53,803 nt of DNA from Eledone cirrhosa. Lineage: Eukaryota. Numbering within the stretch: the first letter of the stretch is position 1; every line of letters starts with the position of its first letter. The notes under the pieces were generated by a model. The model ran no database searches. It worked only from the letters and a program-made list of their open reading frames with translations, and had not been told where the DNA came from. Shown here piece by piece: positions 1,659-53,803 of the stretch. Both the position numbers and the translations under genes were made by a program. The stretch lies in contig CAXHJY010000697.1 in assembly GCA_964016885.1 (NCBI GenBank), positions 1 through 53,803 on the forward strand, given 5' to 3'.

Positions 1659-1854
1659 AACGAAGGAAATGTGGTAAGGAACCAGGTGGACCATAACGCA
1701 CCAAAGTTCTCAACACTTAGGGTAGTAGAGTGGGTAATAGGAACAAGTAAGACCCCGACGGCTGAGCTCAAGCCGTTTCGACGGCTAATTCTGAGTCCAG
1801 AATTAGCCGTCGAAACGGCTTGAGCTCAGCCGTCGGGGTCTTACTGGTTCCTAT
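1659..1854. mobile_element. Family E (TA)n-inserted element ending in a hairpin (1737-1854)
   Basis: 57-bp arms, 4-nt loop; related copies at ~3931-4110, ~12812-12937, ~16346-16552, ~51471-51650. Confidence 0.8.
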
Positions 1855-2265
1855 ATATATATATATATATATATATATATATATAATGTGTATATATAAA
1901 GTTGTGAAACGAAAGGAGCTGTGTGGTTACTAAAAACAAGGTTTCGGACGGAAGGACGGAATAAGAGGAGAGGAAAGGAAGAAAGGAGTTTCCATCGTCA
2001 GCTGTAAATGTATCCCGAACCGATGTTTCGGCGCTGAATTACAGGAAATCGGTGTAGTTCGGGTGCGCCCGAGGCCTTTTATTAATCAAAAGGCCAGGTG
2101 GAAAAGGAGAGAGAAAGAGAGAAAAAAAGGAGAGAGAAAAGGAAAGAGAGGGAAAGGAGGAAGAACAGGGGGAAAAAGATGAGGAGAAAGGAAAGGGGGG
2201 AAGAAGATGAGGAAAAAGGAAGAGGGGGAAATATATATATATATATATATATATATACATGCATA

Positions 2266-2331
2266 TATTTTATCTGATGAAAGCGCACCATAATTTACCT
2301 TGGTCGCCCTTGAAATATATATAATAAAATA
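2266..2331 (+). ncRNA. Minimal hammerhead motif, family A
   Basis: TATTTTAT-CTGATGA-imperfect stem II-GAAA-TATATA-TA-ATAAAATA; 8-bp stem I, palindromic stem III, AUA triplet. Confidence 0.7.
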
Positions 2332-2744
2332 AATATGGTTTTATAAATATAGTTTCCATTTATTAATACATTGTGTATATATATATATATGTTTCTTCCA
2401 CATATATGTGCCTATGCATTCATAGTCGTTCGCACGTAATCGTGTATTTCTGGCGACTTATCTGACTGTCTATCTCTCACTCTACCAAACTACCTCTCTA
2501 TCAGTGAATGGGTATATATTCACTCATCAAACACATGTCCTTGTGGTTCACTGAACGATATACGCAACTGCTAGTGAGGGTCCAATAAGATTGGTATCCT
2601 TTGTCATGTTTACATACCTACATATTTATTAGCTGTGTATATATACTGTATTTATAAGCGATGCTGCAGTGTCGGTTACATACTTTATATTTACACAGAT
2701 ATAACTTGATCATATACCTCGGCTAATAGACCACTTCACACTAT

Positions 2745-3165
2745 GTATGTCATCATCACCATCACTCGTCGACTACTGTCGAGATGATGGATCTCACTCT
2801 CATGCCCCAGAATCCCCGGTCCCCCATCGCTGCCCCCCAGGTCCTGTCTGCTGATTCCCGTATCCCTAGAGATAACGTGAGGGAATGACAGCTTCCTACT
2901 CCTAGTCAGGCTGGAGTCAGGGTTCCAGAGCAAGAGAGCGGATATGATTTCATTGCTGGCACGGTGACAGTGGCCAACAAATTGAGCTCTCCGGGATTTT
3001 AGAAGGGCAGAGGCTCGAGGGAGTTTGCCATAGATTTTAGACAAGGTGGGATGTCGTTTCCAGGATAGGTTTTGCACTCTCATTTAGAGGCGGGTATATG
3101 TGCCATCCAATCTCCTCTCAAGTTGTGATGTTAGTGTCCAAGTTTCGGATCCATAAAGTAATATT
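2745..3165 (-). mobile_element. 5'-truncated RTE-clade LINE 3' end
   Basis: ILLYGSETWTLTSQLERRLDGTYTRL*MRVQNLSWKRHPT...RRAQFVGHCHR, typical RTE C-terminal motifs; in-frame stop; (GAT)n-like tail. Confidence 0.8.
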
Positions 3166-48795: not shown

Positions 48796-50879
48796 TTATA
48801 TAATATATATATATATATATATTATATTTATTTACATATACACACACACACATTATATATATATATATATATATATGAATAGAGAAAGATAGGAGACTGA
48901 ATTTAAGAGGGAGAAAGAGACATGATAGTTTCCATAGACAGACTAAGCCAGTGTAAGACTAATAAACGACCAAACCGCAGCTAACTATCTCAGAGAAGAT
49001 TAAAACGAAACGTTTTCTTTTTCCATTCGTTCATTTTAATATAATAGAATGTAAGAGTGGAAATTACTTTCCAATCAGCAAACACTGACAGAAGACAAGC
49101 AAGCATTCTAATTTAGTTTCCAATCACTAAAGAAATGTATCGAATCAGATTGAATTAACTTCGCTGAACAGACCGATGATCCAATAATTAATCAAGTTGA
49201 TTATTATCGATACAGAACGAAAATGAAAACGAAAAGGAAAACAAACGAAAGAAAGAAAAATTTGAAGGAAAATGTTATTGTTTTATTGCAGCCTTTTACC
49301 TGTGACTAATATTTAAATGTCTTTATTTCAACCTACTAAATACCTGTATTGATTAAATCAGATGAGTAAATATTCGATAGATGTTTTAATTAAGAATTAC
49401 TGACGGAATACTTGAAATAACCTTATTTTTCTTGTTGATCTTTAACTCTTAACGTCGAGCAGTAGTTTAACAGAAATATGTCTGAAACAAGGTTGGTAAT
49501 TCGAATGTTTATAGTATCTTTACTAGTCGACTGATTGTCGTGAACATTTGCTGTATTATCTCTCAATAGCCTGTTAGGGTTAGCGGCAAATATCAATAAA
49601 CGGATTTGTTAATCTAATTGTTAATATTATCTCTACTAGTGAGCTGATAAAGGCGAACATGTGCAACCTTATCTCTTAAGATCTACACCTCACAGACACT
49701 AATAACTGTTAGTCGAATTTTTTTGTCTTTACTGGACCTTTTTCTGTTTCTTCATTGTGACCCTGTCTCTATTTTGTACTCCTAAAGAAGGGTTAAAGCC
49801 CGACACGTCGAACTTTTTTTCCGCTTTCCTATATAAAGTGTGAAACTAATAAGACTTTGTACCTGATTGTTGTCTCCTTAAACTATATATATGTATACAC
49901 ACCCACACGGACACACACATACATATATATAACGTATGCCAAAATCTCAATTTAAGGGGACTACAGGATGTTGGCATCAGTTTAATACGTAAAATTACTT
50001 CTCTAAGTTTGATAATTTATCTCTATACTTTACCCATACATTCGGCTAAGTATGGCAAACAACGTTTTAAAATATATGTGTGAGAGAGAGAGAGAGAGAG
50101 AGAGATAGATAGAGAGAGAGAGAGAGAGAGAGAGAGAGAGAGAGAGAGAGAGAGAGAGAGATAGATGCATAATTACATATATACATCCATCTATACACAG
50201 ACACACAACCATATATATATATGTGTGTGTGTGTAGGTTTTAAGGGCACTTGTTAATTAAATGTAAAATAGCAACTATATAATTAGACGGAAATTAGATG
50301 TAAACTTTATTGCTAAAAATTAATTGGCAAAAATTCATTTCCCTTGCAATTACAGACTTTATTTGATTTTAGAGTGTGCCTTCTTTCTTTCTTTCTTTCT
50401 TTCTTTTTTTTTCTCTCTCTCTCTCTCTCTCTCTCTCTCTCTCTCTCTCTCTCTCTCTCTCTTTCTTTCCCCACCCACTTCCACTTTCTTACTTCTCCAT
50501 GTCACACTCTGTTCTACCGCTGCAAATGATAGTGATGGTGATGATGTCCTTGTTGTTGTTACGATTGGTGATAGTCATGGCGGTGATACTAAAGATATAT
50601 CATTGTTGATATGATGATGATGATGATGATGATGATGGTGGTGGCGATGATGAATGTCATGAAAATACACTATTGTATTGAAAACGGTAAGAGCAAACAT
50701 TCCATGAAAGGAGTGTATGGGCCTTCATATAGGGTAGGAGTAAACCCCCCCCCCCGCGCCACCCGCCCCCATTCGGCCACGAATGACCAGGGATATTGCG
50801 CCAAGAAAGTTCACTTCCAAGACCCAGGTCCGACTAATATATACACCAACCTCCCCTAACCGAAACCACAGATGTTGTC

Positions 50880-51022
50880 AAAGCGAAAGGCAATGGCCGA
50901 TACAGCTTGGCACTAGTAACATCACAACTCATTTCTACAGCTTATTAAACTGGAGCAACGTGAAATAAAGTGCCTTGCTCAAGGACACAATATAGAACTC
51001 GTTCCAGGATTCGAACTCACAA
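50880..51022 (-). mobile_element. Fragment of a second tRNA-derived SINE family
   Basis: Minus strand GAGTTCGAATCC B-box followed by gtgtccttgagcaaggcactttatttcacgttgctccagt. Confidence 0.6.
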
Positions 51023-51301
51023 ACCCCTTATAATATATATATATATATATATGTAGATAAATCTACCAAAAGTTTACGGTCGTGTCCAATCCGTATGAAG
51101 AACTCAATGTAATCCGGATATCATGAAAAGAAGAGATGCATTCAAAAATCACTTTCGGTGAAAGATAAACGGAATACAGAGTATTTTTTTTATATTTTAA
51201 TATTTTTTTAATATTTTATATATATATGTATATATATATATATATATATATATATATATACGATATTAAATAAATGGAAACTATATTTATAAAACCATAT
51301 T

Positions 51302-51366
51302 TATTTTATTATACATATTTCAGGGATACCAAATTAAAATATAGCATGCCTTCGTCAGATAAAATA
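51302..51366 (-). ncRNA. Minimal hammerhead motif, family A
   Basis: Minus strand: TATTTTAT-CTGACGA-...-GAAA-TATGTA-TA-ATAAAATA; stem II weakly paired. Confidence 0.58.
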
Positions 51367-53803
51367 CAATATATAAACAGTTTTATAAATAATTTTGACG
51401 TTCCCTATTAGAAGCGACCATTATTTTTGGAGGCTGTCTGGATATATATATATAGGAAACAGTATGACCCGGACGGCAGAGCTCAAGCCGTTTCGATGTG
51501 TATTTCTGGATTAACAGAAATAGCCGTCGAAACGGCATGAGCTCTGCCGTTGGGGTAATACTTTTTCCTATTTCCCACTCTACTAACTTAAGTATTGAGT
51601 ACTCTGGTGCGTTATGGTCCATCTGGTTCCTTACCACAATTCCTCTGTTATATATATATATATATATATATATATATATATATGTATATATAATACGTAT
51701 TATATATATATATATATATCATATATATATATATACATATATATATATATATACATATATATACATATGAATATATATATGTATATATATATATATCATA
51801 TATATATACATATATATACATATGAATATATATATGTATATATATATATATCATATATATATACATATATATACATATGAATATATATATATATATCATA
51901 TATATATCCATATATATATATATATATATCATATATATATATATATATATATCATATATATATCCATATATATATATATATATATATATATCATATATAT
52001 ATCCATATATATATATATATATATATATCATATATATATATATATATATATATATATATCATATATATATATATATATATATATCATATATATATATATA
52101 TATATATATCATATATATATATATATATATATATATCATATATATATATATATATATATCATATATATATATATATATATATATATATATACATATATAT
52201 AAATATATATACATATATATAAATATATATATATATATATATATATATATTTACATATATATAAATATATATATATATATACATATATATCATATATATA
52301 TATACATTTATATATATATATCATATATATATACATATATATATATATATATATGTATATATATATCATATATATATATCATATATATATACATATATAT
52401 ATATATATATACATATATCATATATATATACATATAGTGAGATGGTTACCAGTCAGAGTTTAGCTTTAAACTATCTCTGTTATTGTATTAAATACATATA
52501 TATATATATATATATATATATATATACATATATATATACATATATATATAGATATATATATATATATCATATATATATACATATATATATATATCATATA
52601 TATATACATATATATATATATCATATATATATACATATATATATATATCATATATATATACATATATATATATATCATATATATATATATATATATACAT
52701 ATATATATATATATATACATATATATATATATCATATATATATATATATATATATATATCATATATATATATCATATATATATATATATATATATATATA
52801 CATATATACATATATATATCATATATATATACATATATATATCATATACATATATATATATCATATACATATATATACATATATATATACATATATATAT
52901 ATATCATATATATATACATATATATATATATACATATATATATACATATATATATATATCATATACATATATATATATATCATATATATATACATATATA
53001 TATATATCATATACATATACATATATATATATATCATATACATATACATATATATATATATCATATATATATACATATATATATATATATACATATATAT
53101 ATACATATATATATATATACATATATATATACATATATATATACATATATATATACATATATATATACATATACATATATATATACATATATATATACAC
53201 ATATATATATATATATACACATATACATATATATATACATATATATATACACATATATATATATATATACACATATATATATATATATATACATATATAT
53301 ACATATATATATACATATATATATATACATATATATACATATATATAAAATATATATATATATACATATATATACATATATATATACATATATATATATA
53401 TACATATACATATATATATACATACATATACATATATATATACATATATATATACATATATATATATATACATATATATACACACATATATATATATACA
53501 TATATATATACATATATATATATATACATATATATATACATATATATACATATATATACACATATATATACATATATATATACACATATATATACATATA
53601 TATATACATATATATATATATATACATATATATATATATATATACATATATATATATATATATATACACATATATATATATATATATATATATATACACA
53701 TATATATATATATATATATATATATATATACACATATATATATATATACATATATATATACACACATATATATATATACACATATATATATATACACACA
53801 TAT

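Follow-up and report, generated by a model that had tools for sequence, protein, structure and literature searches.

Which elements carry the numerous hammerhead ribozyme motifs that lie beside (TA)n tracts on a contig of Eledone cirrhosa, and how did they come to be there? The window analysed here is the entire unplaced contig CAXHJY010000697.1 (53,803 nt; assembly GCA_964016885.1), from a genome of 3.0 Gb with about 30 large contigs. An initial annotation described its motifs as belonging to a diverse set of non-autonomous, Penelope-dependent elements that colonise (TA)n tracts. We consider it very probable that families A, B, E, F and H are terminal repeats of coding Penelope-like elements (PLEs) with Hydra-clade motifs, present as cut-short and often mirrored stubs, and that a 466-nt tandem array is a retrozyme served by the same enzymes. 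Because most motifs match truncated PLE ends, we interpret the window as a dense example of known biology.

The motifs themselves stand out clearly from the background. At all 12 positions listed in the initial annotation, the core letters CTGANGA and GAAA are present. A strict descriptor of the type I hammerhead finds 11 motifs, namely six of the listed ones (cores 2274, 3732, 28914 and 32789, and 25776 and 51358 on the reverse strand) and five in the array, while dinucleotide shuffling, with 200 replicates for each of two block sizes, averaged 0.0 and 0.01 motifs and never exceeded 1. A relaxed descriptor, allowing a bulge at the base of helix II, a helix II of up to 160 nt and a U3-A8 core, finds 18 motifs, which include 11 of the 12 listed positions and two unlisted ones (11353 and 33226), against a mean of 0.31 and a maximum of 3 in 100 shuffles. 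The predicted excess over shuffled sequence is therefore present, and the estimate of one motif per 3 kb agrees with the roughly 20 motifs in 53.8 kb. The motif of family H (25358, mirrored at 25349 on the reverse strand) and the E copies of the window pass neither descriptor. H fails both because its helix II begins with a U-U mismatch (helix I has 6 bp in its genomic copies), and in the five E insertions of the window the first core half is missing.

Conservation of the core above its flanks was measured in family A: in 50 A-type copies, which are interrelated so that their kinship inflates the counts, and which were gathered by a flank anchor, 29 of the source loci having been picked with a query containing the core, it amounts to 99.8% for the core, 94.1% for the flanks and 87.8% for helix II. 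In the largest A cluster, changed sites number 0/363 in the core and 55/1914 in the flanks. The initial annotation had named equal motif frequency in shuffled sequence, or a core no better conserved than its flanks, as findings that would speak against it; the excess and the core conservation are the opposite of both. The short palindromic helix III that it described (TATATA, TGCGCA, CGATCG, CTAG) holds for A, B, F, the array and the family with core 38891, and not for the family with core 30906 (CATTG). Families A and B have helix I in common. The motifs at 30903, 38886 and 43187/43337, previously placed in one family, fall into three unrelated ones without mutual matches in a self-BLAST comparison. 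Among the 150 of 299 Rfam matches listed, the hammerhead family (RF02275) was matched by array copies only, at 38.9 bits, under the gathering score of 52. MicroRNA models dominated the Rfam matches in the window and were rejected as chance, fitting TA repeats and palindromes. By their sequence, the window motifs are hammerheads predicted to self-cleave. Flanking DNA at further loci (L078, L079, L157, L018, L056 and L198) contains at least 10 more hammerhead families, several with helix II regions of 48–101 nt and a palindromic helix III.

Family F connects such a motif to an intact coding element. In the window it forms a two-armed insertion (43122..43690) with hammerheads at 43329 (reverse strand) and 43346 (forward strand) and a helix II of 116 nt, and an F-type tail of a pseudo-long terminal repeat (pLTR) lies at 51050..51182 on the reverse strand. 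Coding partners were located by extending outward from genomic copies of each family, and for F a spacing of about 6.4 kb between copies drew attention to locus L187. Here, a pLTR (212-562) is followed by an open reading frame (ORF; 662-3151), a 3.5-kb microsatellite-rich stretch and a second pLTR (6633-6983), and both pLTRs are 99.4% identical to window positions 43340-43690. The ORF has 830 codons from stop to stop (813 amino acids counted from methionine) and aligns (E 2e-9) with the reverse transcriptase (RT) region of a PLE ORF in which Pfam recognises both RVT_1 and GIY-YIG. Compared with the motifs given in the available part of PMC8557442, its translation contains the Hydra motifs DKT, CxCx5C, CxxC and CxH, and no CCHH. 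Locus L187 thus holds an intact F element with the architecture of endonuclease-bearing (EN+) PLEs, in which an RT and, at the C terminus, a GIY-YIG nuclease share a single ORF between pLTRs. The PLE whose terminal repeat is F measures 6.4 kb and bears Hydra-clade motifs. Frames of at least 808 codons hold about 125 of the best 150 genomic matches to the first 200 residues of the F ORF, and we regard the family as young because most of the matches listed sit in such long open frames. A protein database search for homologues returned 120. Intact-looking F elements also occur in tandem runs with a spacing of about 6.6 kb, such as those of four elements each on C6 and C1.

The other four families lead to broken ORFs. 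Family A is present as a pLTR fragment with a type I core at 2274 (2266..2373, forward strand), as pLTRs at 3680..3928 (forward strand, core 3732, tail of about 90 nt) and 51249..51421 (reverse strand, core 51358), and as a pLTR at 25679..25835 (reverse strand, core 25776) that is followed by an inverted piece and a tail to about 25870. A nuclease fragment lies 1.2 kb upstream of A in L202, and 1.4 kb of upstream sequence is common to L019 and L027. Family B contributes two two-armed insertions, one at 28721..29101 (cores 28826 reverse and 28914 forward; short end left, long end right) and one at 32532..32895 (core 32789 forward), whose left arm lacks the first half-core. All four long B copies fetched consist of an inverted pLTR, ORF fragments and a pLTR, and the ORF link recurs in L078. 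Family E comprises a head-to-head two-armed insertion whose arms start within helix II, without a first half-core (1656..1854), further two-armed insertions at 3932..4112 (likewise without the first half-core), 16345..16554 and 51452..51652, and a fragment with tail at 12803..12939 (forward strand). L195 shows an inverted repeat, ORF, repeat and tail of E; the complete ribozyme in L197 has a U3-A8 core, and all five copies in the window start downstream of its first half. Family H forms one two-armed insertion (25202..25419; long end left, short end right), and L198 has its pLTR, tail and ORF start in succession. A genome-wide Pfam search for GIY-YIG mostly recovered loci of Neptune type; none of its matches was a partner of A, B, E, F or H. 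With these ORF links, the Penelope dependence proposed by the initial annotation is supported and the non-autonomy is not supported for these five families, while non-autonomy does fit the 466-nt array. First-look genome candidates, which are lower bounds and not copy numbers, amount to 1369 (A), 722 (B), 387 (array), 203 (F), 1044 (H), 1079 (E), 1328 (38891 family) and 1177 (30906 family).

Insertions of the different families share one anatomy. Every family has two fixed 3′ ends, a short and a long one, 75-135 nt apart. Among 149 scored loci, 71 are two-armed and head-to-head (L010 and L011 being one insertion), and 67 of these 71 combine one short with one long end. The copies display the 5′ truncation, inverted 5′ copy and one-sided tail typical of EN+ PLEs. 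Relative to the core, 5′ starts cluster at about -60 to -80 in A and about -63 to -68 in B. In H and in 7/28 F arms, where the query start biases the result, they are at most 10 nt away from it; by reading, the clusters coincide with hairpins or palindromes. Apparent 5′ starts of E, as well as F starts near -950 to -1035, were discarded as alignment artefacts.

These features suggest a course of insertion. The GIY-YIG nuclease would cut (TA)n on both strands, and each 3′-OH would prime complementary DNA (cDNA), the long end of the pLTR RNA serving one of them and its short end the other. Reverse transcription would usually halt early, leaving short stubs, and a self-complementary site close to the ribozyme would be where the two cDNAs are joined. 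Going by the literature, the hammerhead, with a predicted dimer fold through its palindromic helix III, would process multimeric transcripts, and circular or multimeric RNA would serve as template; we propose that insertions extend beyond the predicted cleavage site because of such a template. The 466-nt retrozyme would be moved by the PLE enzymes.

Proximity to TA tracts is plain in the counts: 169/240 scored ends of genome copies adjoin (TA)n, compared with 2109/19166 random positions in the same loci (11%) and 16% of random positions in the window. An end counted as adjoining when it met at least (TA)4, element boundaries were set automatically, and two loci are duplicates. The TA preference in the initial annotation is supported. 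The direction of its colonisation of (TA)n tracts may be partly reversed, because the sole informative empty site among 94 insertions searched has about (TA)3 in host-repeat paralogues and (TA)10 and (TA)11 at the filled site; the remaining pairs proved to be adjacent elements or one and the same locus. It is thus possible, if rather unlikely, that elements insert at short TA-rich sites and that long (TA)n arises during or after insertion, making the association partly a product. Apart from the empty site, this would fit the unmirrored copies that often lack TA at the 5′ end, and the repeated units of a 26-nt element end plus (TA)10 at 38971-39272. Set against it are the restriction to a single empty-site case, the TA at the truncated 5′ end in the unmirrored copies L022, L065, L082 and L129, and the stacking of elements at each other's TA tails, as pre-existing tracts predict. 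As a tentative mechanism for such an outcome, priming from two ends at a short TA run could start at two fixed points of the pLTR RNA, with the cDNAs joined at a hairpin and the TA run lengthened; in one variant, two RNA copies might be held together by the palindromic helix III.

Several points weigh against A, B, E, F and H as ends of coding PLEs. Extension towards an ORF was found in just 2/29 A loci. Most copies of A and B are short and have a 5′ start in common, 38/41 A arms reaching no further than 93 nt upstream of the core, and in all copies examined the linked ORFs of A, B, E and H are broken. In the F ORF itself, Pfam recognises no family, and its translation reads RWR where Hydra elements are described with RWK. 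Helix II of F, H and the 38891 family starts with a mismatch, and in free folding the complete three-way junction is missing for several motifs. No coding partner was found in the 1.5-kb flanks of the 30906 family at 14 other loci or of the 38891 family at 19 other loci. The genomic loci are the best-scoring matches and no random sample, 78/149 were scored as single-armed, and the two-primer step of insertion is one we infer from layouts.

The short copies and broken ORFs would be expected if the short A, B, E and H units were by now self-propagating, non-autonomous subfamilies derived from PLEs, whether solo-pLTR, SINE-like or retrozyme-like, with their coding parents surviving as old relics, a view in line with the initial annotation. 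Sharp clusters of 5′ starts in A and B, the 97-99% identity of short copies and about 30 E matches that are identical across the central junction point the same way. However, long copies bear a pLTR that is itself 97-99% identical to that of the short copies, and F, with its many intact ORFs, gives short two-armed stubs like those of the other families. Moreover, the long ends of A, B, E and H carry no direct tandem units, and the clustered starts coincide with hairpins or palindromes, which could serve as joining points of cDNAs. We therefore regard such subfamilies as unlikely, a little more so than the idea of TA tracts as products, and prefer coding PLEs as the source. That chance produced the motifs in palindromic, AT-rich DNA, or that the repeats are DNA transposons resembling miniature inverted-repeat transposable elements (MITEs), is hardly credible: the window is rich in TA repeats and Tc1/mariner MITEs resemble the insertions in mirror symmetry and TA flanks, but shuffle means of 0-0.3 against 11-18 motifs, a core more conserved than its flanks, arms that stop at different points and the direct link to PLE ORFs refute this for the array and for families A, B, E, F and H, leaving it possible for single motifs such as that at 11353.

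The 466-nt array (39817..42608) is of another kind. It consists of 4.6 units on the forward and 1.4 inverted units on the reverse strand, with hammerhead cores at 40080 (reverse), 40878, 41344, 41810 and 42276. Each unit is followed directly by another one or by TA, and in the genome near-identical multimers occur at many loci, often with a strand switch. No PLE protein match was found at array loci L086-L110 (25 loci, about 10 independent sites). Non-coding tandem units with a type I hammerhead in each, as in non-long-terminal-repeat (non-LTR) retrozymes, are present in the array and absent from A, B, E, F and H, whose long ends run into TA, other flanks or an ORF. The unit appears in contigs from four sequencing runs (three fully, one partly), which also contain the joint between units; tandem DNA accounts for this joint just as well. 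The array is likely a non-coding retrozyme that spreads without a gene of its own. A second family (L202 1526-1912 and L191 5638-5856) is 70-77% like parts of the 466-nt unit and has its own hammerhead-shaped motif.

A different PLE type is represented by the 3′ end of a Neptune-type element with partial tandem restarts (32897..33398, forward strand). It is 98% identical to L039 and L041, where it lies downstream of a GIY-YIG match. Its hammerhead-like variant at 33226 combines U3-A8 with GCAA in place of GAAA, and activity of this motif is doubtful from its sequence. At L201 (about 4900-6300), a tandem array of about 310-nt units stands next to a Neptune-type ORF.

The window contains further hammerhead-bearing or related repeats. 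Two separate families are the 5′-truncated element with core 30906 (30770..31007, forward strand) and the element with core 38891 (38544..39001, forward strand), which has an inverted piece upstream. About six tandem 46-nt units follow the latter at 38971-39272, each made of the last 26 nt of the 38891 element and (TA)10; they are a minisatellite born at the element end. The unlisted motif with core 11353 (11340..11420, forward strand) is hammerhead-shaped with a long helix III, lies within the inverted repeat 11282-11512 and was found just once among the loci examined. A repeat at 11570..11870 (forward strand) has core letters and a 5-bp helix II at 11633, with weak helices I and III, and recurs as a truncated head-to-head pair at 12233-12634. 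The head-to-head remnant at 44086..44242 belongs to a further hammerhead family with complete motifs at other loci.

Other features include mirror repeats at 3456-3563, 4288-4389 and 11282-11512, without a match in the other loci examined. A very common repeat of ~190 nt, probably a short interspersed nuclear element, has more than 15 window copies (691-1100, 3230-3385, 6790-6980, 8550-9200, 11100-11286, 24903-25085 and others). Remnants of long interspersed nuclear elements (17780-18657, reverse; 46600-48240, forward) contain zf-RVT (L1/Tx1-like) and RVT_1 (RTE-like as read) fragments. A general repeat search of the window was dominated by TA tracts. A LIM domain exon at 31100-31350 on the forward strand (Pfam PF00412, E 2.7e-18) is single copy, and several elements are probably intronic because the 30906 element stops about 100 nt ahead of it. 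A search for a second allele of the contig through this exon gave just one 71% paralogue, so that the window insertions stand without a filled/empty comparison.

More than 100 apparently intact ORFs, a fixed pair of ends and the strict combination of short with long make family F a concrete substrate for questions of inverted PLE insertion and of ribozyme function; PMC8557442, in its accessible part, asks for an in vitro system for PLEs. Long helix II variants suggest that PLE ribozymes are undercounted by descriptor searches, and the 116-nt helix II of F would escape standard descriptors. If two-ended priming with lengthening of the TA run holds true, elements seed microsatellites besides using them, and the PLE machinery carries the 466-nt retrozyme as cargo.

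How do these elements compare with known systems? As far as the available part of Craig et al. 2021 (PMC8557442) goes, Hydra PLEs show inversion, a one-sided tail and TA preference, and Hydra-1_Obim of Octopus bimaculoides carries a hammerhead. F agrees with this clade in its single ORF, C-terminal GIY-YIG, DKT, CxCx5C linker, CxxC plus CxH and absence of CCHH, and its ORF resembles by eye the N-terminal part printed for Hydra-1_Obim. The window families likewise share with it the hammerhead near the 3′ end, (TA)n insertion, the inverted 5′-truncated copy and the tail at a single end. In contrast, F is about 6.4 kb long with its 3.5-kb 3′ region (Hydra elements being generally <3 kb), has RWR for RWK and a helix II of 116 nt, and possesses clear pLTRs where Hydra-1_Obim is listed without; window family tails measure 75-135 nt as opposed to 30-40 bp. 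The motifs suggest assignment of F to the Hydra clade. L039, L041 and L192 resemble, by motif only, the Neptune clade as covered in the same source, with a CX2-5CxxC linker before GIY-YIG; the Neptune-type piece at 32897-33398 differs in its hammerhead-like motif with U3-A8 and GCAA.

For the ribozymes, the nearest comparison is Cervera and de la Pena 2014, who described pLTR hammerheads in which helix III is palindromic and A9 is followed by an unpaired base, together with a U3-A8 variant, opposite-strand pairs and, for the most part, singles that stem from truncated PLEs. In that study minimal ribozymes showed weak cleavage, and none as single motifs; the Discussion suggests that the ribozyme may cut multimeric transcripts, leading to circularisation and more-than-unit copying. 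Our motifs are alike in being type I, in the short palindromic helix III, unpaired base after A9 and U3-A8, and in the many families per genome, opposite-strand pairs 100-700 bp apart and singles from truncated PLEs. Unlike theirs, with a helix II of 7-8 bp, several families here have one of 51-116 nt, and G10.1-C11.1 is often missing. The words 'mollusc' and 'octopus' are absent from their main text, as are 'hammerhead', 'ribozyme' and 'Hydra' from the part of the PMC13282606 main text available, in which the repeat annotation of O. vulgaris includes recently active PLEs. In the literature searched, which included few subscription papers, we found no 116-nt helix II, no near-strict short/long count and no Hydra-type family with this many intact ORFs.

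Metazoan retrozymes have been proposed as non-autonomous PLE derivatives, in the accessible portions of Cervera and de la Pena 2020 (PMC7229834) and of Li, Clavereau and Pollet 2026 (bioRxiv 10.64898/2026.07.22.740005); the latter reports that 1/9 Xenopus retrozyme dimers cleaved. To the extent that these portions describe them, the 466-nt array matches metazoan non-LTR retrozymes in its non-coding tandem units of a few hundred nucleotides with a type I hammerhead each, and differs in its PLE-style inversion and short/long ends. A, B, E, F and H are unlike them in lacking tandem short units. The finding adds families to two known kinds, the pLTR hammerheads of PLEs and the metazoan retrozymes, and shows dense coverage of the genome by both.

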